Positions 35,491 to 61,196 of a DNA stretch of 64,000 nt are shown one piece after another; the first letter of the stretch is position 1, and each line of letters starts with the position of its first letter. The notes beneath the pieces were generated by a model. That model searched no databases. It saw only the letters and a list, made by a program, of their open reading frames with translations, and was not told where the DNA came from. Location of the stretch: the IMG/VR virus record IMGVR_UViG_3300028581_000010. One strand, written 5' to 3'. This DNA comes from a virus (lineage: Duplodnaviria > Caudoviricetes). A program made the position numbers and the translations under genes.

Positions 35491-35898
35491 TTATCTACCA
35501 GCATAGCGTACTGCCGGTGGTGTAGCTTGGGGCTGCGGCACCGCAGCAGGCTTTTGTGTTAGATTAGCGTACTGATTCTTGTAGTATGGTGCTACAACGT
35601 TAGTTAAGTTGTTACCTACTGCGTTAACTGCTCTATGCACACCCGTCCACATAGCTGCCGATGGAAGACTTAGACCGGAGATAGGGTTTGCCAGCGTTTC
35701 TTCCATAAAGCTTGGTTGCGCGCTCGCAATCTTCTTAGGAAGGCCTTTATGCTTGGTTGCGGCGAAGTCATGGAGCTGCTTTTTGCTCAGAGACTCGGCT
35801 AGCCGACGTATTTCAGGAGTAGCAGTGGACAATTTGCCTTTTTTATAGGCGTATGCTTGTCCAAATAGACGTTGTTGGCTTTGAGATACAGCTGGCAT
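35491..35898 (-). CDS. DUF3008-like protein with K-x-A motif and C-terminal extension
   Basis: MPAVSQSQQRLFGQAYAYKKG...LHDFAATKHKGLPKK, then KIASA. Confidence 0.75.
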   Translation of the reverse strand: MPAVSQSQQRLFGQAYAYKKGKLSTATPEIRRLAESLSKKQLHDFAATKHKGLPKKIASAQPSFMEETLANPISGLSLPSAAMWTGVHRAVNAVGNNLTNVVAPYYKNQYANLTQKPAAVPQPQATPPAVRYAGR

Positions 35899-35903
35899 AA
35901 CAA

Positions 35904-36332
35904 TTATTTACCGAACATGAGCTTGATTTTGCGTTTTATCTTAGAAATGTCTAGATTCATCTCTGTTTCAGTATATCTTAACACAATGTAGCCCTTTTTT
36001 TCCAGTCTTTCAGTAACCTTTTTGTCCTTGGCGGCCTGTTTTGGCTTACCGTGCCAAAAATCTCCGTCTGTAAAGAGCACATAATTGGGCTCGACGACGG
36101 CGTCTGCGACACAAATACCGGCTACAGGCTGCTGCTTCTTGAAGCCTATACCAAGCGCCCCTAAAAGTTCATACATTTTAGTCTCAATGTACGTTTCAGG
36201 ATGCTTTCCGTTGAGGTAACCACGTATGCCTGCACACTTTGCACTACATGTCTTACCGTTCAGCATCCTTTTTGGAGGCTTAACCCATTCCCTTTTGCAA
36301 AAAGGACAAATTTTTAGCTCTTTTTTAACCAA
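35904..36332 (-). CDS. DUF559/Vsr-like PD-(D/E)XK endonuclease with zinc ribbon (probable free-standing homing endonuclease)
   Basis: CPFC..CSAKC, T.IE, ADA, FTDGDFWHG, D......L...GY.VLR. Confidence 0.8.
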   Translation of the reverse strand: MVKKELKICPFCKREWVKPPKRMLNGKTCSAKCAGIRGYLNGKHPETYIETKMYELLGALGIGFKKQQPVAGICVADAVVEPNYVLFTDGDFWHGKPKQAAKDKKVTERLEKKGYIVLRYTETEMNLDISKIKRKIKLMFGK

Positions 36333-39099
36333 TTTTTAACTTTCTTCGCACTTTGGCGAGCTCGTCGACCTTTTTGCCGGCAACCTTGCAAAATTCTTGC
36401 AGTGTTTTGGGGCCGGCAGGGTCCACTGGAAGGTTAATATACTCATCCTCGCTCAAAAATGCGTATTTTGTGTAGTTTTTTAGGTAAATTAAGTCATTTT
36501 TGTTGCACCAGTCGCTAGACCTGTCATCTGTAATACCACTTGCGCGCCTAAATACACCCGCAACTTTCTCTGACGAGCCCTTCAAGATACCAGCTGACTC
36601 CGCAGCCAGTCTAGCCTCGTTATCTTTTGCATTTTGCGCCTCCTGTGCAACCTGCGCACGGTACTTTTCTTCTAAACTTTGAGTCCGTTGATCGGTAACT
36701 TGCTGTTGCTGCGCTTGTCTTTGTGCATTAAAGCGAGAGCTGATGTATGACTTCATGTCACCTCCAGCCTGAGCACGCGGATCTTGGCTGTAGTCCTGTT
36801 CAAACTGCAGGCGTTGCTCCTTCTTACGATTAGACGCCACCGCTAACTGTGCCTCTAGCGCTCTTTCTGCGTTTGCATTAGAGCTATTCTCTATATCTTG
36901 AGCTATTCGTTGCTGATTAGCTGTGAGCAAGCCTGTTATTGAGCCCACCGGATCTATAGCTCCTCTCCATATATTTCCAGCCACCGACCCATTAGCCCTG
37001 GAGTCCACTTGTTCTTGCAGATACTGCGGAACTTCTCCATAACGCGCTGCATCAACTAGCCGCGCTGCGCTGGTCAGATGTACAGCTGGCAGCACCCCTG
37101 AAGACATTGTTGCGGCACCTGAGCCTGCAGCTACTAGATCACCATTATATACATCGGTTGCAACCCCTAAACCTATGAGCGACTTCCCAACATTGCCCGC
37201 GAAGCGTCCAGGTCGCGAGCTTCTAGGTGTGACAGGCTGCGCAGGTTGTGGAGCTACTGCACCGCCAGCGGAAGGCCCACTAATCAATGGATGCGGTTGC
37301 CCAGGAATTATAGGCGCAGCGTTTTTCGGCGCCGGTGTGGTGAATGCAGGCCGCGGCAGAGGCTGCGTTTTTTTAGGTATAGTGCCTGGCTGCTTAGGTA
37401 TAATAGGCTGCGTTTTAATTGCTGTGTTTATCTTTGGTGGTGGGGGCAGTGTTTCCGGTACACCAGGTATCACAACTTTTGGAGCTGTACCTGGTGCAGG
37501 TTGCCGGCTACTTGCTGGTGTAAAGCCTTGCACAGGCTGCGTTAAATCCTTACTAAGTTTTTCAAGCATACTCATAGGTTGTTCTTTCTTTTGTTTATGC
37601 TCTTTAAGCTTATCCATCACCTTTGAAATAAGGTACGACCCTACAGCAAGCCCACCTGTAGCCGCCATGACCTTAAGATTCTTAATCTTCTGGTGGCGCA
37701 CATCACTGCGCAGCGTCTTAGCCGCGTCCGCAACGTCGAAGTTATACCCAACACCACGTCCTTGAATTCTCGGATTTTCGTGCTCGAGCAGTTGCTCGAA
37801 ATGCTTTCTTCTGTCGGCATGCGCCGTGTCCCACGTAACTGCCGAAGGTATCTCGTGTGTTACGTTGGAGGCATTGCCTTCAAAGTGCTTCATGAACAAG
37901 TCTCTGTTCGTATTGGGAAGCACGTTGATAATCTTACCCACTTCTTCGCCAGGCATATGCATCAGCTCGCCCACAGTGGAGCCGGGTACAGTCATCACAT
38001 AATGTGAGTCTGCAAATTTGCGTGCAACCTCGCCCTGCGGAATACGGTCGATAAAGTTCACGCCGCTAAACCTGGCCTTACCCTCAGGAGTTGCAATATA
38101 GTCCTGTAGCTCCTTGAAAAAGTTGTCGCTACGCATGCCGCGCATCTGCATCGGGTTTTTATCCCAGGTAGAGCCTAGCAGTGCGTCTAACTCAAAATTG
38201 TTGCCGTGTTTGGCCCGCATAGCCTCCACGACGTCATCTAAGAAAAAACGTTTGCTGACGTCGTACCGGCGCGTGGCATAGTTCTTGGCCCCAGGGCGCC
38301 TGAGTAGCTTATCTGCCATCGTAGCCGGCAGATCCTCAGTTCCAGCTACGGCCAGCTCATCAAATACCATAGGAGCGGCGTTTCCTCCGCCCATGGTAAA
38401 GAATGCCTTTTTTCTAGCCGCTGGCGACCAGTCCTTAACTGTGTATGGCGTATTAAATGCATCGCTTACAGGTATGTTACCCACGCGCATGCTCGGCAGT
38501 TTACCTGTGTGCTCCTCGGGCATGGTATAGTGCTCGTCTTTGCCTGGTGTCCAATATCTATGAAAGCGCTTTTTATCGCCGCGTACCGCCATGGCATCCT
38601 GCCCGGCTGTATCATATATTTTACGTGTGTTTACAAAGTTACCGGAGTCAAAGTCCGTATTCAGCCTTATCTTGACCTTACCTGCGTCTACAATTGCAGG
38701 TCTGCCAAACTCATGCCCCACGCCGATGACAGCATCATAGTCTGGTGGACTAGCTGCCTGGCGGACAACAGTGCGAGCTATTCCTTTGGCATCTTTCCCG
38801 CTGGTTGGCCATGGATCGTGGTCTACATTAAGACCTTGTTCTTTTAGCGCCTTAATCAGTGCGTGAGCCTGTGAGGAAAAGCTGTCTTTTGATGTATTGT
38901 TCGAAGCTATGTACGGCTGCGGGCCTCCCAACACGCGCACATGCGGAGTTGCGTCTAAGTTAAATACACGAGTACCTCCATGGTGCGCAAACTGCGCGGC
39001 AGTGGCTAAGCCTCCACCAGCCGCGAGCACTTTCAACGCCGTAGACGGGTCTATGGCGGGTTCATTAGGAGTTTCTTCAACTGGAGGCAGCTCGGGCAT
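36325..39099 (-). CDS. Large modular protein: GT-B (GT28/MurG-like) glycosyltransferase domain flanked by Gly-rich hydrophobic helices, plus Pro-rich and coiled-coil modules
   Basis: KKAFFTMGGG, FIDRIPQGEVARKFADSHYVMTVPGSTVGELM; separators LEKLS, SEKVAG, FCKVAG. Confidence 0.7.
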   Translation of the reverse strand: MPELPPVEETPNEPAIDPSTALKVLAAGGGLATAAQFAHHGGTRVFNLDATPHVRVLGGPQPYIASNNTSKDSFSSQAHALIKALKEQGLNVDHDPWPTSGKDAKGIARTVVRQAASPPDYDAVIGVGHEFGRPAIVDAGKVKIRLNTDFDSGNFVNTRKIYDTAGQDAMAVRGDKKRFHRYWTPGKDEHYTMPEEHTGKLPSMRVGNIPVSDAFNTPYTVKDWSPAARKKAFFTMGGGNAAPMVFDELAVAGTEDLPATMADKLLRRPGAKNYATRRYDVSKRFFLDDVVEAMRAKHGNNFELDALLGSTWDKNPMQMRGMRSDNFFKELQDYIATPEGKARFSGVNFIDRIPQGEVARKFADSHYVMTVPGSTVGELMHMPGEEVGKIINVLPNTNRDLFMKHFEGNASNVTHEIPSAVTWDTAHADRRKHFEQLLEHENPRIQGRGVGYNFDVADAAKTLRSDVRHQKIKNLKVMAATGGLAVGSYLISKVMDKLKEHKQKKEQPMSMLEKLSKDLTQPVQGFTPASSRQPAPGTAPKVVIPGVPETLPPPPKINTAIKTQPIIPKQPGTIPKKTQPLPRPAFTTPAPKNAAPIIPGQPHPLISGPSAGGAVAPQPAQPVTPRSSRPGRFAGNVGKSLIGLGVATDVYNGDLVAAGSGAATMSSGVLPAVHLTSAARLVDAARYGEVPQYLQEQVDSRANGSVAGNIWRGAIDPVGSITGLLTANQQRIAQDIENSSNANAERALEAQLAVASNRKKEQRLQFEQDYSQDPRAQAGGDMKSYISSRFNAQRQAQQQQVTDQRTQSLEEKYRAQVAQEAQNAKDNEARLAAESAGILKGSSEKVAGVFRRASGITDDRSSDWCNKNDLIYLKNYTKYAFLSEDEYINLPVDPAGPKTLQEFCKVAGKKVDELAKVRRKLKIG

Positions 39100-39146
39100 A
39101 TACTCTATATTATACAAAAGTCAACAATTCCTGGAAAGCTTTAATA

Positions 39147-39180
39147 GCTAAAAAGAGGACCGCCGCGGGTCCTCTAGCTA
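39147..39180 (-). terminator. Intrinsic terminator flanked by TAGCTA on both sides
   Basis: tagctagaggacccgcggcggtcctctttttagcta. Confidence 0.75.
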
Positions 39181-39186
39181 GAGTAA

Positions 39187-39702
39187 TTATAGCTTTGTTG
39201 CTGCGAACTCCTCTGGAAAGAACACACGAAGCACTCTAACAGCGTTTCGTACGTTTTTTCCTACCCAGATATGCTTGTCTCCGAAGTGCACAAAGCGCAC
39301 ACGGCTGTCGGTTATCTCCAGCATCAGGTTTGGGTGTGACGGGCAGATCCAGCATGTGCCTGCTCTGTGTTGGAACTTGTTCACGATCAGCGTATTAATG
39401 GCCAGATTGCCGCCTACTATACTACGAAAGGCCGCCCCCATGCTCGTCATTAGTACGTTCTGCGTTTCACAGGTGTCAAGCAGCGCATCCGTCATATGAT
39501 ATTGACGGAAGTACAGCCGCATCCACGAAGTGGCGGCGAGTACCCATATGGCAGCTACTATGTTTGCGTCCAGGCAAAATAGCACAAAACACAGCACGTT
39601 AAGCAAGTAGAGCCAGTCCGGACCTGGAAACCACTCCTTGATGTTGTTGGAGAAATGCTTAACGCTGTTGTATATCTTCTTCATATTTAATGAGTTGTAC
39701 AA
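39187..39702 (-). CDS. Membrane protein
   Basis: Two hydrophobic helices; start uncertain. Confidence 0.65.
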   Translation of the reverse strand: MYNSLNMKKIYNSVKHFSNNIKEWFPGPDWLYLLNVLCFVLFCLDANIVAAIWVLAATSWMRLYFRQYHMTDALLDTCETQNVLMTSMGAAFRSIVGGNLAINTLIVNKFQHRAGTCWICPSHPNLMLEITDSRVRFVHFGDKHIWVGKNVRNAVRVLRVFFPEEFAATKL

Positions 39703-39852
39703 TCTTTTCGAGGATTGTTATAATCTTGAGACGCTTATCCGGCGGCATGAAACCCGCAGGCTTTAGGGCCTCGCGGGCATGCACGCCTTCGGGAAATGTC
39801 CTGTTAATGATGAGAGGCGTCCTCGGCTAGCTGACGAATGTCAGCCAACGCC

Positions 39853-40182
39853 TCAGGTGAACATGCAGGTGATGGCATAAACTGAGTTCTGTGTGCACAC
39901 CACGCCGCCCTCGGCAGTTATATCAATCGCCTTCAGGGTTGATGTGACGAACTCTCCAGGAGTCTCAACTCCGTTACGAATACGTCTGGCTACCCGAATA
40001 GGCTTGCCGTATTCGATGTCGTTCAGCAGCTCACCTACGAGACTGTAGTCGATGGGTAGAGAAAGATCTTCTTCACCAGCAGGCCCAACGCCTGGAATCC
40101 ACTTCTCCATAGGACAGCTGCCTACCTTTGCGTCAGGCGCTTCTTTTAACTTCTTAACTAGTACGGTTGTACCTTTTATCAT
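39853..40182 (-). CDS. Hypothetical protein
   Basis: 109-aa ORF with ATGA overlap. Confidence 0.7.
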   Translation of the reverse strand: MIKGTTVLVKKLKEAPDAKVGSCPMEKWIPGVGPAGEEDLSLPIDYSLVGELLNDIEYGKPIRVARRIRNGVETPGEFVTSTLKAIDITAEGGVVCTQNSVYAITCMFT

Positions 40183-40364
40183 GTTTGTTTGGTTGTTGTT
40201 TGTTTGAGGTTGACCACCACGTGGGGTGTTTTCATGGCATTGATGCCGTAGTCTTTGAGCAGAATGGCGTCGGCGTCTGATAGAAGCTCTGCCTCGATTT
40301 CTGCAACCAGCTTATATTGAGCTGGATCTTTACTGGATACGTCCTTGTAAACGTAAGTGCTCAT
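40179..40364 (-). CDS. Hypothetical protein
   Basis: 61-aa ORF. Confidence 0.6.
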   Translation of the reverse strand: MSTYVYKDVSSKDPAQYKLVAEIEAELLSDADAILLKDYGINAMKTPHVVVNLKQTTTKQT

Positions 40365-40503
40365 TTTCTTCCTTTAGCTTCCAAGCGTTGTAGTAGATTT
40401 CTTCTTTCGAGTTAGGCTCCATGATAGGAAGCCAGTGCACCTCGAGAGGCGCACAGCTTCCCATCAATAGAATAAGAGCCAGCAAAAGGGCTCTAGGCAG
40501 CAT
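40330..40503 (-). CDS. Small lipoprotein
   Basis: MLPRALLLALILLMGSC lipobox. Confidence 0.55.
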   Translation of the reverse strand: MLPRALLLALILLMGSCAPLEVHWLPIMEPNSKEEIYYNAWKLKEENEHLRLQGRIQ

Positions 40504-41584
40504 TGCAGCAGTCTCTCCAGTGAGTACGATCGCTGCTGAACTGCCAGCGGTTGATGTGGAGGTCCTCAAAGGAACGATAGACGACTTTTCCTTTTTGCAT
40601 GATGTCCAACCCTGCCTCGTAGATACCTACCACGAGGCACTCATCTGGCGTGTAGCCGATCTTGGCCAACTGACCCACCCAGCGCACGAAAAACGGCCCA
40701 TAAGGCAGGTTGCTCTTCGTGAGCGCTTTGTTCTTTGGTTGTGCCGGGAGCGGACGCTTGGTGCGGTGTGTGTCATAGTTGTCGCCGGCGACAGCTCCAC
40801 AACTATATCGACTGGTCTGTTCCCATGGAACTTGTCGGGCCGAGAAGGACGTCGAGCAGAAGAACTCGTCGTTACGCTCGATAGTCTCCCCCTTTAGCAG
40901 TAGCCTCCACCCGTCGCTCACGCCCACCTGTTTTGGTGTGAGCTTATGCCTGTTCCACCACTCCTTGCCCTCGGGGGCTGGTGGGAACTCGTCGGGTTTG
41001 ATACGCAGCTCGCACCGGGAGTCTAGATTGTCGAAGTCCCCTGTGTACGTAGCCCATGCGCCGCTATCAAATACAACGCGCTTGCACTCTATGACCTTAC
41101 CTTGAGAGCGCGCCTGCCGAAACTCGGCGTATGGATCGACTTCTGGTATGATAGGTACTGCTTCGAGGTAATGAAGATCGCCGTAGCCCAATGGGCAGCC
41201 GTAGGTCGATGATGGGTCCCAGTTGTGGTCATCGTACGGGTCATAACATATGTAACGTACCTGCAGCGAGTGCTCCCAGCCCATCCCACGATACTCCCAC
41301 TTGTACCCTTCTGGCGGAGCAATAGGAGTCGGCAGGTTCCAGGGCATCCCAGCGATGCCGTGCTCGGCGGGGGCCATATAAGCTAAGTCTGAGGCATCAC
41401 ACCCCCCGCAGGACTTGCCGTCCTCTGATGAGGTTGAAGGTGCCGCCACTCCTGCGACTACCGCTCCGAGGCGATGGCACTCGTAGAAATCCGGGCGATG
41501 AAACAGAAACTCCGCAACCCTGCCGTCGCGGGTGATGGCCTTGCGGCCCTGCTTGAATTGTTCGAGGTTGAATGGATCTGGCAT
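40493..41584 (-). CDS. Multi-module hypothetical protein, paralogue of 47311..48441
   Basis: FNLEQFKQGRKAITRDGR...MAPAEHGIAGMPWNLPTPIAPPEG. Confidence 0.75.
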   Translation of the reverse strand: MPDPFNLEQFKQGRKAITRDGRVAEFLFHRPDFYECHRLGAVVAGVAAPSTSSEDGKSCGGCDASDLAYMAPAEHGIAGMPWNLPTPIAPPEGYKWEYRGMGWEHSLQVRYICYDPYDDHNWDPSSTYGCPLGYGDLHYLEAVPIIPEVDPYAEFRQARSQGKVIECKRVVFDSGAWATYTGDFDNLDSRCELRIKPDEFPPAPEGKEWWNRHKLTPKQVGVSDGWRLLLKGETIERNDEFFCSTSFSARQVPWEQTSRYSCGAVAGDNYDTHRTKRPLPAQPKNKALTKSNLPYGPFFVRWVGQLAKIGYTPDECLVVGIYEAGLDIMQKGKVVYRSFEDLHINRWQFSSDRTHWRDCCNAA

Positions 41585-41595
41585 AGTTTTATTAG

Positions 41596-50662: not shown

Positions 50663-51022
50663 TTCGAGAAAGGTAGCGTTAACCAACGTGGCTTGCTGGC
50701 GAGTAGCCTGCATCCACCTGGTTGCTATATCACTGGGATTGTTCCACCAGGCCCGAATGTGCAGCGATTTCCACATCGAGTCCCATACCCACAAAGAGTT
50801 GTCTCCAGCGGGATAGAGATAGACCACGACGGCGTGGCTCCACTGCGTTGTATCTATCTTGAGCACCTTGGCCTGTATCTCGGCCTTATGTAGAGACTGT
50901 ACCATGATGACGGCCTCAGGCAGACAGGCGTTCTTATACTTGCCATAGATGGCATTCTTCTCTGCTGGAGGCTCTATGGCACACCCAACCAATAAAAGAC
51001 TAGCTAGCAGTAGGGCTCTCAT
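50660..51022 (-). CDS. Lipoprotein with putative papain/transglutaminase-like Cys-His-Asp triad
   Basis: LLVGC lipobox; ACLPEA, WSHAVVVY, WVWDS. Confidence 0.65.
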   Translation of the reverse strand: MRALLLASLLLVGCAIEPPAEKNAIYGKYKNACLPEAVIMVQSLHKAEIQAKVLKIDTTQWSHAVVVYLYPAGDNSLWVWDSMWKSLHIRAWWNNPSDIATRWMQATRQQATLVNATFLE

Positions 51023-53658
51023 TTAGTTTTCAGTAGTGCCGCCCGCATCTCTGGAGTAATCTTGAAATGAGCTGCGTTGTCGTGAAAGCCTGGCTGATAA
51101 CCAGGAAGAGCTTCGAGCTCCTTACCACACACACCCTTATGAAATCTATCCAACGGAATAATGCTAGATGGATCTTTAGGGTGATTTAAGACCTGTATGC
51201 CTTCTCTCGGCGGTGCACCGAGCCCAAGTGTTCTTGTTTCAGGAGGAGCAAAACGTAGGCGATCTACTCCTCTACTATGACCAACCCATAGATCAGCCGC
51301 GGCTGGCACAGTATATGCATGTCCTGCATCTTCGGTCACAGTGTAACCAGCTCTCTCGAGCAACTTACGTACCGCGGTATAAAAAGCTCTTGGACGAGGC
51401 CTGTCGATATACTTGGGATTACCTTTGATGAGAACAGCTTTAAGTTGTTTCTCTAAACCTGCGGCTTTCTTCAACTTCTCCACCTTGTCCTTGTGAAATG
51501 CTACACGCTCGCTCAACGGCACGTTGGTCGGAGTCTCCACGGTAGTATAAGAGATACCCTTATTCTCCATGACCTTCTCGATAGAGCCCTTCGGTGGATA
51601 CTTGCCATCAGTGATCACGCCCTGTACTGCTTTGTCACCTTTTACGGACTTAGCCTGTCCTAGAGCCTTGCCCGCGTTTAGCTTCTGTCTAACTCTGTCA
51701 GCTATGTCATGCGAGGCATAAGCGTAGGCGCCATGTGCGTCGTTATCCTCATGAAGATCTATAATTTGCTTGGGATGTAGAGCAACTAGCTTGCGAAGAG
51801 CGCTCACGAGCTTGGGTGGTTTGTTTGCGTCGTCGAAGTGTCTGTTTAAATCAATACCATGATCTGTGCGTTTACCAGAATGATTACCTACATCAACTAC
51901 AGGTAACCCCTTGCTTGCGAGCTGCCTGCCTGCAATAGCTGCAGCTGGCTCGTCACCGTGTATACCGGAGACAATTACGGTGTCGGCTGCTGTCTTCTCA
52001 TGCTGGTTTCTGTTACGCAGGTGCTTCATGACCATGTCATAGAAACCAGCAGTCTTCAACCCAGCCTGTTGCTGGTTCTGTGCAAGAAACTGGCTATCTC
52101 TGGCAATCGCCTCGCGTAGTGCTTCTGCGCCCATCTCGTCGCCTGACTTAACCTTGTAGATGTAATCCCTAAAAATACGTGCACCCTCGGGAGGCATCTT
52201 GTCTAAAATGGCAGGATTCTTCTCTATCTCCGTAAATACCTGATGTATCTCGGCAGGAGTGTTCATCTTTCTTCCAGTGACGTCTCTGAGTGTGTTTAAA
52301 CCAGATAGAGCACCTTGCAGATACTCGGGAGCTTGAGTTGTGTTGTACGTAGGAGCCCTCAAGGCACCAGGTGCAACAAATTTATCCTCTGGCTTGAATC
52401 CCTTGCTCACCAATGATTGCTGCTGCTTCTGGTTTAGTGTACGTTGAAACTTTGTTAGATTTGCAACTAGTCCTGCAGGGGCGACATTCTGAAGAAAGGC
52501 ATGGTTTCCTTCATGCATGGCTGCCCAAGCTGTTTGATCAGCGGGCATTTTGGCGTTATCCGCATAACCACTGAAGTTATTCCAGGATACACCAGGCCAG
52601 CCATCTGCGCTGTTGCCTTTGTTTCCGTAGACATACTTCTGCAGCGCGGGATTAACAGATATGCTCTCTGTTTTAGGATGATACATGCCGGAATCATCTC
52701 CACCCAAAGTTAGGGGAAACTGTTGGTCTCTACGGGACCAGTCCACGCCATACGGTAACTTATCCTTAAGCTTTTCGTAGTTAGCCCTTTGCTCGGCTAC
52801 GAAGCTATCCGCACCACCAGGTATGCGCTGAAGCAGCTGGTTGTTCATTTCCGCCGGTGAAAGCGACGAATCTGATGGAAGCTGTAGCTGCGTAGGTGTG
52901 TGGGGTAATTTTCCTTTTGGAAAGATAGGGGCCTCCGTCCAACGCTCTTTTGGTTGATATACACCAGAGCGTAGAATGTCCAAACCATCATACCCATTTG
53001 GGCTAGGTGCCACAGGGCCTTTATTGACCGTTTCCAGGTTGAGCTGTGGCTCAGGCTGAGGATTGGCATTGGGCTGCAGCTTGTTCTGAGGAGGAAGCAA
53101 TGTCCTGCCATATGCGATAGCAGGCGGAGGAGTAGTTATTTCCGCTGGTGGAGGCGGCGCCAAAGTGACACCGCCTGCTTGTGGCCCTTGTTCAGGGGGT
53201 AATTTAACCTGCACCTGAGGTTCTGGTGAAACAGGCTTACTCTTAGCTATTTCTGTTTTTTCTGGAACACCAAGTGGTCTATTTATACTCGGCTCGGGAC
53301 CGACGTGCGGTGGTAATTGTGTGGGAACACCTGTAATTACGGGCTTTTCCGTCTTTACCGGTGTTTCTGCCGGTGGTTGTTGCTTAGGAGGCTGAGCAAC
53401 TGGTGTAACGTTATCAGGGACCTTTACAGGAGTGACCGTCTTTTCAACAGAAGGGGCCTTTACAGGCTCTTTGTTAACCGGAATGGCTCTACGTACCTCT
53501 GGTTCTGCTGTGACCGGTATAGCCTTGCGTATTTCTGGCTCTGGAGTAACTGGAATGGCCCGGCGCACTGGAACCTGGCCCGTAGTTGGGTCGATTGCCA
53601 TGCGCTGAGCCCCTAGATTAGCCAGCTTGTTGAGTAATTTTTTAGATATTCGAGCCAT
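51019..53658 (-). CDS. Large modular protein: Pro-rich RRAIPV repeats, HExxH metallopeptidase-like domain, M14/succinylglutamate-desuccinylase-like peptidase, small GxSxG hydrolase-like domain
   Basis: AMHEGNHA; SGIHGDEP, DLNRHF, IIDLHED, TVETP; WVGHSRG; separators LKTAG, EKTAA, KKAAG. Confidence 0.8.
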   Translation of the reverse strand: MARISKKLLNKLANLGAQRMAIDPTTGQVPVRRAIPVTPEPEIRKAIPVTAEPEVRRAIPVNKEPVKAPSVEKTVTPVKVPDNVTPVAQPPKQQPPAETPVKTEKPVITGVPTQLPPHVGPEPSINRPLGVPEKTEIAKSKPVSPEPQVQVKLPPEQGPQAGGVTLAPPPPAEITTPPPAIAYGRTLLPPQNKLQPNANPQPEPQLNLETVNKGPVAPSPNGYDGLDILRSGVYQPKERWTEAPIFPKGKLPHTPTQLQLPSDSSLSPAEMNNQLLQRIPGGADSFVAEQRANYEKLKDKLPYGVDWSRRDQQFPLTLGGDDSGMYHPKTESISVNPALQKYVYGNKGNSADGWPGVSWNNFSGYADNAKMPADQTAWAAMHEGNHAFLQNVAPAGLVANLTKFQRTLNQKQQQSLVSKGFKPEDKFVAPGALRAPTYNTTQAPEYLQGALSGLNTLRDVTGRKMNTPAEIHQVFTEIEKNPAILDKMPPEGARIFRDYIYKVKSGDEMGAEALREAIARDSQFLAQNQQQAGLKTAGFYDMVMKHLRNRNQHEKTAADTVIVSGIHGDEPAAAIAGRQLASKGLPVVDVGNHSGKRTDHGIDLNRHFDDANKPPKLVSALRKLVALHPKQIIDLHEDNDAHGAYAYASHDIADRVRQKLNAGKALGQAKSVKGDKAVQGVITDGKYPPKGSIEKVMENKGISYTTVETPTNVPLSERVAFHKDKVEKLKKAAGLEKQLKAVLIKGNPKYIDRPRPRAFYTAVRKLLERAGYTVTEDAGHAYTVPAAADLWVGHSRGVDRLRFAPPETRTLGLGAPPREGIQVLNHPKDPSSIIPLDRFHKGVCGKELEALPGYQPGFHDNAAHFKITPEMRAALLKTK

Positions 53659-53698
53659 TACACGCCTTGCCCCACAAATATCTAACTATTTTAGCAGC

Positions 53699-54496
53699 TT
53701 ATAAGTCGTTTATCCAGCTGAACTTTGTAGATAGGCCGTCGGAGAGCTGCTTACCGAGTATTTCCTCGTAATTCCTCGGTAGAGGCTTCACGTTGCTTTG
53801 AATCAGATGCTGCCCATAGGGCCAACCCGTCTCGTGCTCGTGTGTATATTGTTCTACGTTGGTAAAATCATGTACAAACCGTGGTTCGCCGAGATAATCC
53901 CACACCTGATCCATGACTGCTTGAGGAAACTGTGTAAGCTTGTCAGCATTGACGAAGAACAGCTTGCTCTTGAACCTGGATGCTGCGTCAAATACACGCT
54001 CTATGGCAATACCAACGGGAGGAGTGTTCAACCAGCCCTGTGCGCGCTTCTCCATCGTTGTAAATCCTTTAGCATTATTGGCTTCCGGAGATGCGAAGGG
54101 AGCTGGATGCTCGCGCCGAATCTTCTCCATGCTGCATATAATACCACGTACATCTCTAACGGGGACGAGAATCTTGGCATCGGGAAACATCTTGTAGGTT
54201 TGATCGATCTGCCCAACCCAGCTACGGCTCTTGTCAATGACAACGGGCCTATCTGTGAGAGAATCAAATGCTGCGAGTATACCAGCACGGTTATAATCAT
54301 CGAACATCTTCTCTACATCCATGGGCTGCCATGCTTTGGCGGCCTCGGACTTGAATAAGCCACGCGCTAGGTAGCTAATCTCATTCATGGGAGATGTTGC
54401 TGTGGCATGAACGCGCGGATTCTGTGCGAGTATATTACATAGAAGAGTGCTGCACGAACGGGGCAGCCCTGATACGAAGTGAACTGTTTTAGGCAT
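53699..54496 (-). CDS. Sulfotransferase (PAPS-dependent, Sulfotransfer_3-like)
   Basis: FVSGLPRSCSTLL 5'-PSB loop, VIDKSRSW, VPVRDVRGIICS; TTGACA-N16-TACGAT-N6-ATG. Confidence 0.88.
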   Translation of the reverse strand: MPKTVHFVSGLPRSCSTLLCNILAQNPRVHATATSPMNEISYLARGLFKSEAAKAWQPMDVEKMFDDYNRAGILAAFDSLTDRPVVIDKSRSWVGQIDQTYKMFPDAKILVPVRDVRGIICSMEKIRREHPAPFASPEANNAKGFTTMEKRAQGWLNTPPVGIAIERVFDAASRFKSKLFFVNADKLTQFPQAVMDQVWDYLGEPRFVHDFTNVEQYTHEHETGWPYGQHLIQSNVKPLPRNYEEILGKQLSDGLSTKFSWINDL

Positions 54497-54559
54497 TCTC
54501 GTATCGTACTCGCACTACGAGGAATGTCAACCGAAAATTACTCTAAACTCTCGGCTTGA

Positions 54560-57535
54560 TTAATCACAGACGCCATCGCTGATCAGTGCCGTGGCGCTAT
54601 AGAGAGAACCGGCTGGATTCGTACAACCAAGAGGCACATCCATTACCCACCCTAGAGCTTCCAATGCAGCTAAGTTCGCACGAAGTGTGTCTTTAGCTGC
54701 AGACGGCTCCGCGGCAATCGATGTCCCTGTTGAGCTAAATATAAACGTACCATCAGTCCGCCCTGCAGCAACTAGCTGCGTCGTGAGTGGTACTAGCTTA
54801 TTCGCAGATATGCTTCCGTTGTTGGCTCCTATCTCCACATAAGCAAGATTAGTTACAGTTCCCACCGCGGCAGTTGATGTAGGTAGTACGAACGAGGCAT
54901 GCCCGTTATAGTCACTGCAACCACTTATAATAAGAGACATCAGCGATGTCATTCCGGACATATCCTGTAAACCAGTATCATCGTGCCCTGCAGAGGCTGT
55001 AATGGTGATTTCCTCAAGAGCTGGAAAGCCGGTGGAATCGGTTACAACCAAACCGCCGTAGTTCCCCTGACCACTCTCTGAAATTGTTAACCTCTGCAGG
55101 CTCGGCGCATCCCACGTACTATCGATGAATAGCTGCGTATATCTGAAGCTATTCTGTATAGTTATATCTGTCAAACTGGTCCAGCCGGTGAAGTCTATGT
55201 CTAAGTCTCCATATATGCCGGTTATGTTAGTAAGTGTGAGAGATGTAAGCGAGGACATGCCCGTTGTGTTGAGTACTTGCAAACCATCATAACCGCAATC
55301 GTTGATAGCGAGTGACGTGAGCGCTGTAAGCCCAGAGCAGTCTGACAAAATAAACGAGTTCGTGGCCATCGGAAAGCCATTTCCACAATAGTCAAACACC
55401 AGCACGGTCAGCGAGCCAAGGGCGGATGTGTCGTCGATGACAAAATCGGAGTGACGTGAGCAGTTCGCAAATGCTAGTGATTGAACCGGACAACCTGCAG
55501 CAACTGCAAAGCTTATGGGGTGACATGTGTCATTCGGTAGGTCAGCCACTAGCATAGCAGGAGTGCGCGCGTTTGCCACCAATTGCATAGTGTTATCATA
55601 GACGCGCAGACCATACTCACAAGATCCATCATCGCAGCCTGCACTAGGGTTGTAGTTGGTTGCAGTTGGTTCTGTGCATCCAGGATACCCACTTGCATAA
55701 CATGATCCATCATCGTAGGCTGCTGCCGAATCATAAGCACAATAAAGTGGGTCCATACATCCTGGAGTACCATAAGCGCAAGATCCATCATCGCAGCTTG
55801 CACCAGGGTTGTAGTTGGTTGCAGTCGGCTCCAGGCAGCCGTAAACTGGGTCTGCTACACAAATACCAAATGCATTACCGCAGTAAGTACTTCCGTAGCA
55901 AGATCCATCATCGCACGAGGCACCAGAGTTGTAATTGCAGGACCCGTTGTTGGCTATACATCCAAAGTAACCACTTGCGGCACAAGAGCCGTCGTCATAG
56001 GTTGCTGCTGGATCATAAGCACAATAGGTGGGGTCCATACATCCTGGAACATCATGATAGTCACAGATATATATGCTACCAGTCCAGCCTTTTGTGTCTT
56101 TTAAACTAGTCCATTTATTGCAAAATTCGTACGTGTAACCATACCCTGGCCACGCCGTAATATAGATATAACCATCGTTAGGCCCATTGCTCAGCAGCGC
56201 GGCAAAAAGGAGGTCCATGTCCCAGCTATTAAACGACGTGTTACCGTCGTGTATCTCGAGGTGAGAAAGCGTTGTACTTATCGCCGAAGTGTCTGGAAGT
56301 ACAAATGTATTATGTATATTGTCCCCTCCAGCTTGTTGTAAAATCAGCTCTGTCAGACCTGTTAATCCAGAAAAGTCGACTATGCGCAAGGGGCTGTTGC
56401 TTGCGACAAAATTTGCAAATGTAAGGCTGGTCAACCCCGCCCCACCTATGAGAATCAATGGATTGCAGTCGGCACCGGCGATGTTGCTAAATGTTGGAGT
56501 TGCGCTGCCGTTAGAATACCCCAACAGCTTGCCAGGAGTAGCGCCAGATCCTGCTAATACGGTAAGGTCCTTCTGAGCTGCTCCGCCTCCACCACCTCCA
56601 GATTGAGCAACCCAGCTGCGCGTGCCACTGGTTGTAGAACTTAATACGTAGCCATTTACTGAAGGATTGCCTAAGGGAGGCTCGCCATTGGTCAAACCAG
56701 CGAGCTTGTCCTTCTCTGTAGTAGTATAATCGTTGGTAGATAGCCCCTTGCCAGCGACGGTATCTACCTTGCTGCCTAGTGCCGTAGCCACGTCCAAAGC
56801 ATTAGCCTTGGCATTCAGCGCGTCCTGTAGGCTCGAGACATCGCTAATAGAATGATAGTGCGTGCTTGCTGCCTTACCGGCGAGGGCATCGGTAAGACCT
56901 GTTATGTCAGATATGCCATAGGTATGCGTGTGCCACGTATCTGCCTTACCAGAAAGTGCTGTGGCAGTGGCCGAGCTGACCGGTTTGTCTGCGTCGGACG
57001 TATTGTCGACGTTACCGAGCCCGACCATCGTCTTGTCATAGTCTCCGCTTTGAGGCGCAATTGCCCCTACACGGCCGTTGAACGATGTGACCGCATCACT
57101 GGTATCAACCTTCTGCCAATCCGTGCCATTTGAGATGATCCAGTCGCCCAGGTTGAAGTCTATAGTCGAGAACGTCCCCGCGGTGGAGACGATGTAATAC
57201 TTTCCTTTAGCTAGCGAGGCCAGCCCAACGGCTGGAGTGTTCGTGGAAGCGTTCCACGTGCCTGCATAGGAAACCTGACCAAGAATAGAGTCTGGTAGCT
57301 GATCTGTGGGAATCTTGGCATCAGCACCAAGCGTTGCTACACCTGAAGCAGCTCCCTTCTCGGACGTGCTGATCTTCAGACTTAAGTCCGAGGTCGTTGC
57401 AAGGCCGGCAGGTAGCGTAGAACTGGCTAGCTTCCCGTCAGCTCCTAGTAAAACTAGTTTATGCTTGTCGGCTGTCCCAGAACTCTCTACTACCGCACCA
57501 GTTGCTGAAATGCGTGAGAGAATGTTGTTTTCCAT
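54560..57535 (-). CDS. Tail fibre / receptor-binding-like protein with LRR-like blocks and Cys-rich GCxDP..DDGSC repeats
   Basis: EKGAASGVATLG, YAGTWNASTN, GLGNVDNTSDADKPVS, HTHT..ISDITGL repeats; five GC...DDGSC units; LxxLxL repeats. Confidence 0.8.
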   Translation of the reverse strand: MENNILSRISATGAVVESSGTADKHKLVLLGADGKLASSTLPAGLATTSDLSLKISTSEKGAASGVATLGADAKIPTDQLPDSILGQVSYAGTWNASTNTPAVGLASLAKGKYYIVSTAGTFSTIDFNLGDWIISNGTDWQKVDTSDAVTSFNGRVGAIAPQSGDYDKTMVGLGNVDNTSDADKPVSSATATALSGKADTWHTHTYGISDITGLTDALAGKAASTHYHSISDVSSLQDALNAKANALDVATALGSKVDTVAGKGLSTNDYTTTEKDKLAGLTNGEPPLGNPSVNGYVLSSTTSGTRSWVAQSGGGGGGAAQKDLTVLAGSGATPGKLLGYSNGSATPTFSNIAGADCNPLILIGGAGLTSLTFANFVASNSPLRIVDFSGLTGLTELILQQAGGDNIHNTFVLPDTSAISTTLSHLEIHDGNTSFNSWDMDLLFAALLSNGPNDGYIYITAWPGYGYTYEFCNKWTSLKDTKGWTGSIYICDYHDVPGCMDPTYCAYDPAATYDDGSCAASGYFGCIANNGSCNYNSGASCDDGSCYGSTYCGNAFGICVADPVYGCLEPTATNYNPGASCDDGSCAYGTPGCMDPLYCAYDSAAAYDDGSCYASGYPGCTEPTATNYNPSAGCDDGSCEYGLRVYDNTMQLVANARTPAMLVADLPNDTCHPISFAVAAGCPVQSLAFANCSRHSDFVIDDTSALGSLTVLVFDYCGNGFPMATNSFILSDCSGLTALTSLAINDCGYDGLQVLNTTGMSSLTSLTLTNITGIYGDLDIDFTGWTSLTDITIQNSFRYTQLFIDSTWDAPSLQRLTISESGQGNYGGLVVTDSTGFPALEEITITASAGHDDTGLQDMSGMTSLMSLIISGCSDYNGHASFVLPTSTAAVGTVTNLAYVEIGANNGSISANKLVPLTTQLVAAGRTDGTFIFSSTGTSIAAEPSAAKDTLRANLAALEALGWVMDVPLGCTNPAGSLYSATALISDGVCD

Positions 57536-57654
57536 CTAGATGGATCAGGTATTTAACTACTCTATCACAAATAGAAAGGCTGTGCCAGAATATTTCTACT
57601 CCGGCACAGCCTTTTGGGTCTGGATTATGTGTATCTGTCTCTTTTCTCTGTCTC

Positions 57655-57879
57655 TTAGTTGAATACGATGTTTACAGCGCCATTGCCGTTAGGTAGGACG
57701 TTGAGGTTGAACCGTTTGACTTGTGTGAATTGAAGTCCGTCAGGAAGTGTGATAATTGCAGGGTCTGCTGAGGCAATCAGTGTGATGAGTGCTGTAACTT
57801 GTGCTGCTGTGATTTGAGCCCGTGCTGTAACCGGAGGTTCAGGAAGAGCGACGATTGTTGGAGTAATTGTATCTGCCAT
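57655..57879 (-). CDS. Small hypothetical protein upstream of the fibre gene
   Basis: 74-aa ORF. Confidence 0.65.
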   Translation of the reverse strand: MADTITPTIVALPEPPVTARAQITAAQVTALITLIASADPAIITLPDGLQFTQVKRFNLNVLPNGNGAVNIVFN

Positions 57880-57906
57880 AGTGTTTGTCTTTTGGTTTAC
57901 TGTTGT

Positions 57907-58380
57907 TTACTGAGTTTGTTTATAAATTGTGTCAAAAGGAGTACCAGCTGTCAAACTTAAAGTTTTTGTGGCTGCGGAGGTATGCGGAGGAGTTGTTGGA
58001 GCTGGATGTGACTTGTTAGAATCCTTCTCCTCCAGACGAATACGCATCTCGTGATCTGTTGTGGTCTGCTGCAGGCTCTCCACCGCGGATTGAAGCCTAC
58101 CAGCCCACCATACCGTAGTACCTATCTGAACAAGCACGCCTACGAGAATAGCTGCAAACACGGTTTTTAGAAAGTTAAACAAGCCGTCGCGCTCCTGAAT
58201 AGTGACTCTGAGTGTATTAACGTCGCTGCGAGTAAGGTCCAAACTGGTTCCGATACGACTAAGGGCAGCTTCATGCCGTTCTATATTCTTATCGACTTCA
58301 TCCAGTCTAGGTGTAATTGCCATGCAAACGCCATCGTTTGGGCAAGCTGCAGGTGGGGTGTGTAAATAGGGTGGGGCCAT
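57907..58380 (-). CDS. Coiled-coil, single-TM, coiled-coil membrane protein (holin/spanin-like architecture)
   Basis: Heptads, hydrophobic FAAILVGVLVQIGTTVWWAG, HEMRIRLEE; start uncertain. Confidence 0.6.
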   Translation of the reverse strand: MAPPYLHTPPAACPNDGVCMAITPRLDEVDKNIERHEAALSRIGTSLDLTRSDVNTLRVTIQERDGLFNFLKTVFAAILVGVLVQIGTTVWWAGRLQSAVESLQQTTTDHEMRIRLEEKDSNKSHPAPTTPPHTSAATKTLSLTAGTPFDTIYKQTQ

Positions 58381-58421
58381 GGTGCTTAATGTTTCTAATG
58401 GTAATGCTCCTGATGCACTCA

Positions 58422-61196
58422 TTATACCAAGCCCTGCTGGGCATTTAAAGGTTTAATTGATTGTGGTAGTTGATTAGTCGCGGGAACTTGTGTAGGAACT
58501 GTGTTGCGGACACCTTCCATCAGGCCTCCCTTGATATGATTGTTCTGTAGAATAGGTACAGCCCAATCGCGAAACTTCTTAGTAATATCGATCAGAGGCT
58601 TGGGGTCATCCTTTTGAATAGCCTCACCTATAGTGTTGTTGGCGCTCCTTGATAGAGTACCACGGAGCACGACGTCAACTGGCCCGAAATGCCCTGCTCT
58701 AGCCCCGCCAGCCCAGTTCTGTTTAACTCTAGCCCAGGCTTCAGGGTCGCCAACAGATATACGATTAGCAATACGCTCACCATCTGGATACTTAGGCGCC
58801 GGTGTTGGCTTGGGTGTGGCAGCTGGTCTGGGTACGTTTGACGCTAATTGAATAGCAGGCGCCGGGGGTGCCCCTGCTGTCTTGACCGTATCTGAGGGGT
58901 TCAGAGCTGAATTAAGTGCTAGCCCACCGCCACCAACGGCAAGAGCACCTGCACCAGCATAGCCTAGGCGCGTATTGCGCACATATCTAGGTAGTTCTCC
59001 TTTGATGGCGGCTACGGAGGCGTCGTATACACGTGGATCTTTCTCGATGAAACCACTAACCGACCCAGTGCCGTCTGCAATGTTAGATTCGATCATGTGA
59101 GGACGCCCAGCTTTGTCTATTCCGACGTCGAAGCCATGGTTGGCCTTGTGCAGAGGAGAATCCTTCATGCCGTCCAGTATCTGCTGCACGTGTTCCTCGG
59201 CTTTGCGTAGATTTCTGGGGCGCCACGGCAAATACGGCTCCACGGCAGATGCCACTGCGCCACCGCGGTTCATAGTGGCGAACGGAATTACTTTACCGTT
59301 TACTGTGTGTACTCTGTACTCTTTATTACCTGAAAAAGGCTTGGATACAGACTCGGGTACAAATTTATCAGCCAGCCTGGACAGCGGATTAGCCTTGGCC
59401 AGGTCCAGATCAGGTTGAACAACCCAGTCTGCATGGCTGTCAGGTGTGATATGACCCATGCTCTGCGTAAGCTTAGCCATGCGCTCGGGTGACATATTAC
59501 CTTTGTTACGAACAAACAGCTCTGGATGATCCTCGACACGGGAGTCCAACGAACCAAATCCTTTTCTCTGCTTAACCACCCAACCCTCGGGATAGGCTTT
59601 ATCAAGAGCAGCTGGATGAGCTTGCTGTGAACCAAGTACGTCGGCAAGCGTTTTAGTATTCTCTAATTCCTTAAAATGCTTGGATTCTAGAAGTTTATCG
59701 TCACCCACCTGCTTATAGAGCCTTTTCTCAGCAGGAGACACAGTATTCGTATGAGCAGGAGGCTTACCATCAAAGGTCGCCTTCATCTGTCCGGGAGTAA
59801 CAGTATCCTGGTTAAACACAAAACCACTATCGCGCATACCCTTCTGAACACGCTTGTTTCCCTTGATATCTTTTCTCGAGGCACGCTCGGTTAGCATTTT
59901 ATCTGAGTAGGCCTTGGCATTTCTACCATGTCCTGTACGCAACTCACGAGCAGCACGAACAAACGCACTAGTATCCTCGGTATCACTCTTCGGGCTGATA
60001 GTAGACAACCCCTTCTTACGTGTGGCAGCTGCTACCTCTTCACCGAACAGAGCGTTATCATAGTTGGGATTCCATAATTTTCTAAGCTTGGCTAGTATCG
60101 AGGATGGCGGTTTAACCGCCCCCTGTTTTCCCAACGTTGGCTCTTTCATCGAGGCCAAACGGGCAACAATGTCCGGTAAACACAGGACATGGGAGACTTT
60201 CTCGATAGGAAAACCTTGCAGGTCTTCTAAATACCGGACATTGCGGTCGGCTTCTTGAGCTAATTTTGGTAGAGCCTGAAGTGCCTTGTTGCTGTTTGAT
60301 TTTTTCCTACTATCTAATGCGTTGACCAGCCCGTGAGCCCGAGTAACCGTAGACGTGCCATAAGTTGCTTTCAATGAACGGAATAACGTATTATCTTCAT
60401 TCTTCGTAGGTAAACCGGGCTTCGCCGAGCTCCTTTCAAGAGAAAAACTAACAGGACTCTCCACCTGTTCAGCTGTTTTATTTAACTCACGAATATTATT
60501 CTCGATTTGAGCTATATGCATTTTGTCACGAAACTCTGCCGTCTTATCCTTGTTAAACAGCCTATGCAGCGCATCTATCTCCTGAGGAGGTAATGCTTCT
60601 ATTCCTGGACGAATCTTACCCAGCTGCTCCTTGGCGAATTGATCATGATTGTCTATATACTTCTCTCTCGCCTGCATTGCTGCTGTACCAAGCTCGGGAT
60701 GCTTCTCTATCTGTGCGATCAATCTGGCCTGGTCTGTGGGATGCATGGTAGACAGTGCTCCTGTTATGGACTCTCTCGCTGCTTCCTGCCCGTAGAATTG
60801 TGCCTTGGCACCTGCATGTGCATTGTTGATCTTATCTATTGTCTTCTTCGTCAGCTGGTCTCCCTGGTTCTCTCTGAATTTCGTCATCTGACCTCTGCCG
60901 GACATTAACCCGCCTAGTAGACCTGTTGCTGCTCCTATGCCACCACCTGTGAGTATTGCTTTGGTATATTTCTGCTGAGATTCCTCTGGTGTGAGCTCGG
61001 GTTCGTCTTCTTTTCTATTGTGCTGGGCAATATACTCCTTTACTCCACCCGATGCGGCACCTACCGTACCACCCGTGAGCGTTCCTATGCCTCCGTGCAG
61101 CATATAGAAATTCTTCAATTTCAGCTTGTCTACGAAGTTCTTCTTTACGAGATCCGCTATCTCTTTCTCTAGGGCGGGATTTACAATTCCAGGCAT
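58422..61196 (-). CDS. Large modular protein: Gly-zipper TM hairpin, then a RimK/ATP-grasp ligase domain with a C-terminal Gly-rich helix
   Basis: GWVVKQRKGFGS, WVVQPDL, EYRVHTVNGKV, GFDVGID..G..HMIESN; separators NKTAE, EKVS, GKQGA, VKTAG. Confidence 0.8.
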   Translation of the reverse strand: MPGIVNPALEKEIADLVKKNFVDKLKLKNFYMLHGGIGTLTGGTVGAASGGVKEYIAQHNRKEDEPELTPEESQQKYTKAILTGGGIGAATGLLGGLMSGRGQMTKFRENQGDQLTKKTIDKINNAHAGAKAQFYGQEAARESITGALSTMHPTDQARLIAQIEKHPELGTAAMQAREKYIDNHDQFAKEQLGKIRPGIEALPPQEIDALHRLFNKDKTAEFRDKMHIAQIENNIRELNKTAEQVESPVSFSLERSSAKPGLPTKNEDNTLFRSLKATYGTSTVTRAHGLVNALDSRKKSNSNKALQALPKLAQEADRNVRYLEDLQGFPIEKVSHVLCLPDIVARLASMKEPTLGKQGAVKPPSSILAKLRKLWNPNYDNALFGEEVAAATRKKGLSTISPKSDTEDTSAFVRAARELRTGHGRNAKAYSDKMLTERASRKDIKGNKRVQKGMRDSGFVFNQDTVTPGQMKATFDGKPPAHTNTVSPAEKRLYKQVGDDKLLESKHFKELENTKTLADVLGSQQAHPAALDKAYPEGWVVKQRKGFGSLDSRVEDHPELFVRNKGNMSPERMAKLTQSMGHITPDSHADWVVQPDLDLAKANPLSRLADKFVPESVSKPFSGNKEYRVHTVNGKVIPFATMNRGGAVASAVEPYLPWRPRNLRKAEEHVQQILDGMKDSPLHKANHGFDVGIDKAGRPHMIESNIADGTGSVSGFIEKDPRVYDASVAAIKGELPRYVRNTRLGYAGAGALAVGGGGLALNSALNPSDTVKTAGAPPAPAIQLASNVPRPAATPKPTPAPKYPDGERIANRISVGDPEAWARVKQNWAGGARAGHFGPVDVVLRGTLSRSANNTIGEAIQKDDPKPLIDITKKFRDWAVPILQNNHIKGGLMEGVRNTVPTQVPATNQLPQSIKPLNAQQGLV

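Follow-up and report, generated by a model that had tools for sequence, protein, structure and literature searches.

We analyzed a 64,000-nucleotide stretch of viral DNA (Duplodnaviria; Caudoviricetes; IMG/VR record IMGVR_UViG_3300028581_000010), hereafter the window, with a focus on four minus-strand genes, P0001 (positions 51019-53658), P0002 (58422-61196), P0003 (36325-39099) and P0004 (35491-35898), whose products carry a short Lys-x-Ala signal. In the form K-x-A-[GASE], this signal is concentrated in the head proteins of the same phage, lies at the joints between the enzyme modules of P0001 and recurs at the joints of proteins that are related to P0001 and have other domain orders. The explanation that we favor, with modest confidence and on the strength of sequence comparisons, is that K-x-A|(A/S/G/E), with the bar denoting the predicted cut, is the cleavage code of the head protease, that P0001 is a cargo polyprotein cut at its joints, and that P0002, P0003 and P0004 are probably handled alike. 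The source of the window is most likely a jumbo phage of at least 215 kb that is a distant relative of Salmonella phage Arash.

The Lys-x-Ala signal in the head genes

The head genes were reached approximately 20-40 kb upstream of the window, where split RNA polymerase genes are followed by an unannotated block (loci L015, L017 and L019). When all 400 spaced residue pairs were ranked in this block, with no motif preset, the pair K.A came first (72 seen vs 35.4 expected, z 6.2); outside the head block, in the remaining 28,401 residues, K.A is slightly depleted (135 seen vs 158 expected). The pair K.S occurs in the head block at the expected frequency (21 seen vs 20.6 expected), and therefore Ser does not appear to be tolerated in place of Ala. 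The residue that follows K-x-A in the head block is preferentially Ala (3.0-fold) or Glu (2.0-fold). The enrichment is most pronounced in a 533-aa protein (L017:7671-9272; 9 K-x-A-[GASE] sites vs 0.96 expected, p 8e-7), a 307-aa acidic scaffold-like protein (L017:15464-16387; 13 vs 2.3, p 1e-6) and a 475-aa protease-bearing protein (L017:11907-13334; 10 vs 1.6, p 6e-6), none of which has a Pfam match, and is also seen in a 133-aa head-module protein (5 sites vs 0.6 expected).

The first-pass annotation had not identified, within the window, the protease to which it attributed the processing; a candidate is found just outside, in the 475-aa protein. Residues 61-211 of this protein match PHROG 18299, 'head maturation protease' (E 1.3e-7), and the matching domain is bracketed by EKTA|G (residues 40-43) and LKMA|S (residues 219-222). 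The relatives of the protease include Arash gp222, gp19 of phage G, capsid maturation proteases from cluster C actinophages and mycobacteriophages, and the annotated capsid maturation protease of Gordonia phage Pupper. The 319-aa capsid protein (L017:18173-19132) aligns with the annotated major capsid protein of Arash over 97% of its length (E 2e-22). Sequence searches against Pfam and the Protein Data Bank (PDB) yielded no matches for either the protease or the capsid protein, and the two identities rest on PHROGs and on the Arash annotation. The capsid protein has 242 relatives, and the 120 that are listed are 70-94% identical to it and are encoded on contigs of up to 232 kb; in essentially all of these 120, K-x-A-[AS] occupies residues 24-27, and its middle position is variable (Q, K, E, D or S). 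The capsid protein has another K-x-A at its extreme N-terminus.

A helix with the pattern [YF]-x-x-G-F-x-K-x-A-x-x-x-G-L opens several head-module proteins (L017:9652-10564, L017:13395-14801 and L017:16932-17381), and these proteins terminate in hydrophobic segments that resemble Gly zippers. The same starting helix is found in some relatives of the capsid protein and in one relative of a P0001 module (module B, see below), P0153. This shared N-terminal helix may serve to target proteins to the capsid, as a leader with a cut site at its end. A BLAST search detected no paralogues of the window proteins among the head-module proteins.

The pattern extends to other phages. In Arash (OQ632216; PMC10585845), a cultured 'orphan' myovirus with a 181-kb genome, the sites are enriched in gp220 (9 vs 1.1 expected), gp223 (7 vs 1.3) and gp225 (6 vs 0.65), the capsid protein has VKEA|G at residue 27, and the protease protein has TKQA|A at residue 30. 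An IMG/VR contig (G003) encodes a protease protein, 29% identical to that described here, with 10 sites vs 1.0 expected, and the adjoining gene has 9 vs 1.5. The protease gp19 of Bacillus phage G contains 5 K-x-A-[GASE] sites vs 0.7 expected, located before and after the protease domain (L022), and no such site was seen in the capsid protein of this phage; the code may extend to phage G. We also observed that the phage G portal protein, gp14, has two K-x-A-[GASE] near its N-terminus. Mycobacteriophage Myrna, which encodes a protease of the same family, shows no K-x-A enrichment, and thus the code is not a property of the entire protease family. A search of the open-access literature, with subscription papers outside its scope, found no published Lys/Ala code for a head protease; the Arash paper (PMC10585845) reports the virion proteome and mentions neither a protease nor cleavage, and its supplement is without peptide lists.

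Modules and joints of P0001

P0001 is an 879-aa protein that consists of a Pro-rich N-terminal region of approximately 255 aa and three hydrolase-like modules split by K-x-A sites. To set the limits of the modules, 1.84 billion representative proteins were searched exhaustively with HMMER; the 395 hits divide P0001 into module A (aa ~260-531), module B (aa ~558-729) and module C (aa ~737-831, or 875), each of which also occurs alone and in proteins of 130-2123 aa with differing partners. Alignments were built for each module separately; a joint MAFFT alignment of the three modules (A1) smeared fragments across the query. All features of P0001-P0004 described below are on the minus strand.

Module A (52066-52881, aa 260-531) is a zincin-like domain that belongs to no Pfam family and contains an invariant H-E-x-x-H signature (H128, E129 and H132 of alignment A2) and a downstream Glu. 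Its AlphaFold2 model has a mean predicted local distance difference test score (pLDDT) of 78 and a predicted template modeling score of 0.78. Nearly all of the best VIA matches of this model are zincin-type metallohydrolases (including YbeY, DPP III, SprT, anthrax LF and ArdC), with Z of only 3.8 or less, and one member of the family matches Peptidase_M91 (E 0.0013); Foldseek found no match in the PDB, and a profile search against the PDB retrieved only WLM (E 0.19). The first candidate cut site, LKTA|G (52045-52059, aa 534-538), is located just after module A, where the homology among 25 relatives stops (aa 526-535) and the pLDDT of the model drops below 50 (model residues 274-286, aa 528-540).

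The second site, EKTA|A (51985-51999, aa 554-558), is three residues ahead of the point where the first strand begins in module B (51472-51987, aa 558-729), which resembles M14-type zinc carboxypeptidases of the Csd4/MpaA/AstE kind and has the complete set of catalytic residues: H18-G-D-E21, N56-R57, H87-E88 and E159, as well as an E-T-P motif, are invariant in the alignment of 22 sequences (A3). A profile search against the PDB retrieved the peptidoglycan-peptide carboxypeptidase Csd4 (4wcm, E 4e-5) and MpaA (4axv, E 4.5e-4), and the single-sequence Pfam search gave AstE_AspA_cat at E 1.6e-4, below the curated cut-off. The third site, KKAA|G (51457-51471, aa 730-734), separates module B from module C. 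In the module C model, pLDDT averages 55 over the ten N-terminal residues (aa 725-734), the first strand starts at aa 739, and stand-alone relatives begin at aa ~737-741.

Module C (51034-51450, aa 737-875) is a small alpha/beta domain (PHROG 30942, no Pfam family), with invariant G-N-P and G-H-S-R-G motifs, Asp and His in its alignment (A4), and is a candidate Ser-Asp-His hydrolase. Its AlphaFold2 model has a pLDDT of 91.4, and Foldseek detected weak matches to flavodoxin-like proteins and esterases, the best being 5cml (probability 0.99, E 0.01). This domain is widespread in phages: it is found alone in phiKZ-like phages (201phi2-1 gp429 [L004], PhiPA3 gp373 and Psa21) and inside polyvalent, that is, multi-domain proteins of up to 2123 aa.

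Thus mapped on model confidence and on the domain limits defined by homology, the P0001 sites (residues 535-538, 555-558 and 730-733) all fall within the only two inter-module linkers, 532-557 and 730-739. A further candidate, KLA|N, is possible as a short leader site at aa 11-14, where the sequence resembles the N-termini of the capsid relatives, and might bear on the route of P0001 into the prohead.

Relatives of the P0001 modules with other architectures carry the same signal at their joints. Module B is flanked by K-x-A-[GASE] upstream in 10 of 16 and downstream in 9 of 13 such proteins, and module C is flanked upstream in 25 of 60. The density of sites per 1000 aa in the relatives is 8.8 in the joint flanks, 0.6 in the domain interiors and 3.9 elsewhere, compared to a composition-based expectation of 2.8; in total, 148 relatives contain 272 sites vs 163 expected, with domain-sized spacing in the largest ones. 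In alignment A3, K-x-A-[SAN] lines up across most of the fused copies of module B, at three residues from the start of the first strand, and the stand-alone copies are without it: a site precedes the module in 9 of 13 fused copies vs 1 of 9 N-terminal ones (Fisher p 0.011), with the Ala 0-5 residues from the domain. This contrast between fused and stand-alone copies is unaffected by kinship among the sequences. In polyvalent proteins encoded on smaller IMG/VR contigs, module C is joined without K-x-A, and one contig with the joint motif also encodes a protease of the same family and K-x-A-rich head genes; judging from these cases, the joint motif appears to follow the lineage rather than the domain. 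Scans of IMG/VR retrieved no relatives of P0001 itself, a word-based search of 5.8 billion proteins yielded three partial matches, and with P0001 as tblastn query neither Arash nor any other phage record yielded a relative, except for the module C copies of the phiKZ-like phages.

Under the mechanism that we propose, the head-maturation serine protease would most likely recognize K-x-A with A, S, G or E as the next residue and cut behind the Ala. The cargo polyprotein P0001 would enter the prohead and be processed at three sites, LKTA|G, EKTA|A and KKAA|G, with KLA|N near the N-terminus as a possible fourth. Three domains would result: one zincin-like, one resembling M14 carboxypeptidases of the kind that trims peptidoglycan peptides, and a small one resembling Ser-Asp-His hydrolases. 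The released enzymes would then be ejected with the DNA. P0002 with its ATP-grasp module, P0003 with its GT-B module and P0004 with DUF3008 carry the same signal outside the folds and are probably handled in the same manner.

Candidate precursors P0002-P0004 and alternative explanations

P0002 (924 aa) comprises Gly-rich helices, a helical region, an ATP-grasp module (58995-60044, aa ~385-734), a Gly-rich helix, a Pro-rich linker and a C-terminal domain. The ATP-grasp module is closest to the R2K clade: residues 385/422-734 have structural matches to ATP-grasp clusters in the ESM Atlas, R2K first, with template modeling (TM) scores of 0.41-0.61, and the Pfam matches to R2K_2 (E 0.0033, 17.7 bits vs a cut-off of 26.2) and YheCD (E 0.0021, 17.8 vs 26.8) are both below the cut-off. 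Downstream of this module, VKTA|G (58872-58886, aa 771-775) follows the ATP-grasp fold by 38 residues, behind the Gly-rich helix and before the Pro-rich linker. Upstream, the nearest valid sites, DKTA|E (60534-60548, aa 217-221) and NKTA|E (60468-60482, aa 239-243), are in the N-terminal region, outside and some 145-170 residues before the fold. The hexamer VKTAGA is common to P0002 and the 133-aa head-module protein.

P0003 is 924 aa long from the ATG at 39099, and the Atlas contains the 924-aa form. In its layout, a GT-B-like module with a hydrophobic Gly-rich helix on either side is followed by a Pro-rich linker and then by a C-terminal part that is Gly-rich and coiled-coil. The GT-B (GT4-like) glycosyltransferase fold (37690-38952, aa ~50-470) has no Pfam match and was recognized from Atlas matches to GT4/GT1 clusters (TM 0.47-0.54 by query and 0.58-0.74 by target, from an Atlas model of low confidence, pLDDT 0.48). 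The candidate sites are PKNA|A (37315-37326, aa 592-595), inside the Pro-rich linker, EKVA|G (36556-36570, aa 844-848), in the C-terminal part, and CKVA|G (36376-36390, aa 904-908), near the C-terminus. The sites of P0002 and P0003 are all outside the ATP-grasp and GT-B folds, the sole recognized folds in these proteins; what argues for the two as cut precursors is this placement, which fits such a role. Gly-rich hydrophobic segments and Pro-rich linkers are common to P0002, P0003 and several head-module proteins and provide a weak link between them. In the 135-aa P0004, DUF3008 (aa 3-56, Pfam E 2.4e-9) is directly followed by KKIA|S and an unstructured-looking tail; according to PHROGs, DUF3008 is also N-terminal in longer proteins.

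The first-pass annotation had read K-x-[AS] as a recurring boundary motif of polyproteins that are processed by a Lys-x-Ala protease. Upon translation, every peptide it quoted was found in place: LKTAG, EKTAA and KKAAG of P0001, at the coordinates given above, and DTVIVSGIHGDE (51949-51984), the quoted start of the M14 domain; NKTAE, VKTAG, EKVS (60192-60203) and GKQGA (60117-60131) of P0002; EKVAG, CKVAG and LEKLS (37552-37566) of P0003; and KKIASA (35719-35736) of P0004. Its description of the P0001 domains, with one site immediately before the M14-like domain and another between this and the next domain, was borne out, as was the position of KKIASA right after DUF3008. The generic motif was another matter: K-x-[AS] occurs 6, 7, 10 and 3 times in the four proteins vs shuffle means of 10.2, 12.7, 10.9 and 2.5, and was rejected as chance. 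The K-x-S variants EKVS and LEKLS, together with GKQGA, were dropped because K-x-S is at expectation even in the head genes. Hence the idea of a Lys-x-Ala protease cutting multi-enzyme precursors gained from the independent tests (the protease, the head proteins and the joints) and lost its K-x-S and K-Q-G-A variants and any count enrichment in the window proteins. Within the window, all five KTA[GAE] occurrences are in P0001 and P0002, and seven of the nine K[TV]A[GAE] occurrences are in the three large proteins, whose share of the residues is 13.6%; this narrowing to the KTA/KVA forms was made post hoc, and for that reason an independent definition of the motif was sought and obtained from the head genes.

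Given that a polyprotein needs few sites, site counts have low power here, and placement is the informative test. None of the nine distinct sites in P0001-P0003 is inside a recognized enzyme domain vs 3.07 expected by composition (P(0) 0.046; P 0.0015 under uniform placement).

Several observations weigh against the explanation that we favor. The large proteins contain 3-4 K-x-A-[GASE] each vs ~2 expected, which is not significant (P0001, 4 vs 1.94, p 0.13; P0002 and P0003, 3 each, within chance). A flank weight matrix derived from the head-module sites cannot tell the window sites from chance K-x-A-[GASE] in metabolic enzymes; the residues around the head-module sites carry little information, and the matrix was not used. 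The joints of relatives with other domain orders are ~15 times denser in sites than the domain interiors, a ratio in which the in-domain depletion is overstated, homologous sequences not being independent samples. Relatives of P0002 and P0003 were not found, for both proteins in IMG/VR, for P0002 among 5.8 billion proteins and for P0003 in JGI metagenomes; a clear capsid-targeting leader was not seen on either protein. The genes for P0001-P0003 are located 55-100 kb from the head genes, amid metabolic and accessory genes, and a Pfam search did not detect membership of the protease in S77 or S78. Finally, cleavage itself, the head protease as the cutter, the cut after Ala and the location in the virion are all predictions from sequence.

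Some of these observations would be expected if P0001-P0003 were ordinary uncleaved polyvalent proteins, in which K-x-A at the joints reflects linker composition, a helix-capping preference or, in P0002 and P0003, chance. The site counts within chance, the failure of the flank matrix to pick out the window sites and the many module C polyvalent proteins without K-x-A at the joint are all compatible with this possibility, and delivery of unprocessed proteins is known for some polyvalent proteins (PMC5512222). We nevertheless consider it unlikely, as it leaves unexplained why K.A is the top pair in scaffold-like proteins, why the motif lies on both sides of the protease domain and invariantly near the N-terminus of the capsid protein, and why it appears 0-5 residues ahead of module B only when this module is internal.

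Two further alternatives appear to us more improbable still. One is that K-x-A is cut not by the head protease but by the HExxH zincin-like module of P0001-type proteins, through autoprocessing in the capsid or after ejection. Module A, with its invariant HExxH and Glu and its zincin-like fold, would be suited to such a role, and autoproteolysis of this kind has been proposed for polyvalent proteins by Iyer et al. 2017 (PMC5512222); yet Arash and contig G003 have the K-x-A pattern in their head genes while tblastn found no P0001 relative in Arash, many relatives have K-x-A joints without module A in the same protein, and the sites flank the serine protease itself. According to the other, to which we give comparably little credence, K-x-A is an uncut binding module, the core of the [YF]-x-x-G-F-x-K-x-A-x-x-x-G-L helix, whose docking to the scaffold or shell would act as a signal for targeting or assembly. 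Several head-module proteins do start with that helix, some capsid relatives start with G-[FY]-x-K-L-A-[SN], and the module B relative P0153 starts with FYIGFIKRAQECGL. The helix consensus, however, is missing around most of the ~50 head-module sites and around all of the window sites, and neither 13 copies in one 307-aa protein nor the exact edges of the protease domain would be expected of a docking helix. The two roles are compatible: in T4, a cut site terminates the targeting sequence.

Genomic setting and comparison with known systems

No near match to the window was found among 50,697 phage records. The P0001 protein is recorded on a contig of 215,276 bp, and the source is therefore assigned to the jumbo phages. 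Contigs of the same phage from other samples span the first base of the window (window positions 1-2645; loci L005, L012 and L015) and lead to the split RNA polymerase genes; because these contigs run across the start of the window, the genome is circularly permuted or terminally redundant. The window genes include a DNA ligase, an RNA-polymerase-like subunit and an intein-bearing ribonucleotide reductase. The reductase gene (5570-8386, plus strand) matches its PHROG family in two separate stretches, its product has a LAGLIDADG_3 match, and it probably contains an intein. A NAD salvage pair (nicotinamide phosphoribosyltransferase and ribose-phosphate pyrophosphokinase) and a Thg1-like tRNA-His guanylyltransferase are also encoded in the window (24803-27019 and 31108-31953, both on the minus strand).

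Between P0004 and P0003 lies a gene for a small DUF559/Vsr-like endonuclease (35904-36332, minus strand) that overlaps the end of P0003 by 8 bases; a mobile nuclease may have inserted here among the cargo genes. P0001 and P0002 are separated by a sulfotransferase-like gene (53699-54496, minus strand; PF13469 on record) and by a gene for a tail-fibre-like 991-aa protein (54560-57535, minus strand) with a PTR repeat and Cys-rich repeats. The latter protein contains 4 K-x-A-[GASE] in its first 280 residues vs 0.95 expected (p 0.016). With regard to linkage of the window genes to virion packaging, the tail-fibre-like gene between P0001 and P0002 is close by and the head genes are at the distance given above; no MuF domain was found.

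The prohead proteases described so far cut after Glu, with the specificity L/I-x-E in T4 gp21 and S/A/G-x-E or A-x-E in phiKZ, 201phi2-1 and SPN3US (gp175/gp245) (PMC10052503), and the proteins packaged by T4-, phiKZ- and SPN3US-type phages undergo trimming or cutting before they are ejected (PMC10052503, PMC5694885). The arrangement described here is similar to the T4 gp21, phiKZ and SPN3US systems in that the sites surround a serine protease, are numerous in scaffold and internal proteins and include one near the N-terminus of the capsid protein; the sites that flank the protease resemble the self-cleavage reported for T4-type and phiKZ-type proteases. It differs from these systems in the conserved Lys and Ala, followed by a small or acidic residue. 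Moreover, nearly all of the SPN3US cuts remove N-terminal propeptides (PMC10052503), whereas the sites in P0001 separate whole enzyme modules.

For polyvalent proteins, delivery with the DNA has been predicted and processing into separate products proposed, including autoproteolysis by embedded metallopeptidases (Iyer, Burroughs, Anand, de Souza and Aravind 2017; PMC5512222); M14 and DUF3008 are unmentioned in the main text of that article. Like polyvalent proteins, P0001 strings unrelated enzyme domains in one polypeptide, and its modules are heavily shuffled among relatives. In contrast to that account (PMC5512222), in which no shared linker signal is described, the joints here are marked by a tripeptide that matches the head-protein pattern of the phage. 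The phage shares with Arash a capsid protein homologue (26.5% identical over 97% of its length), a homologous protease-bearing protein, the K-x-A enrichment and the gene order, with the RNA polymerase subunit genes adjoining the head genes. Arash is only a distant relative, and no counterpart of P0001-P0003 was found there.

If true, the Lys-x-Ala code would represent a different prohead-protease specificity in a large and almost unstudied clade of phages. We regard it as a realistic, although somewhat less secure, prospect that K-x-A|(A/S/G/E) takes the place of the Glu codes throughout an Arash-like clade of jumbo phages, which counts one cultured member and hundreds of metagenomic relatives of 180-230 kb, and that this clade uses the code to build true enzyme polyproteins. 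The modules of such polyproteins (peptidoglycan-peptidase-like, zincin-like, serine-hydrolase-like, ATP-grasp and glycosyltransferase) would be separated from one another inside the capsid and injected as individual enzymes. The code is readable from sequence and would predict capsid cargo among unknown proteins, along with the mature ends of these proteins, and the availability of cultured Arash makes it testable. If the joints are cut, one gene would deliver several separate enzymes into the host at infection, allowing compact evolution and shuffling of injected tool kits.

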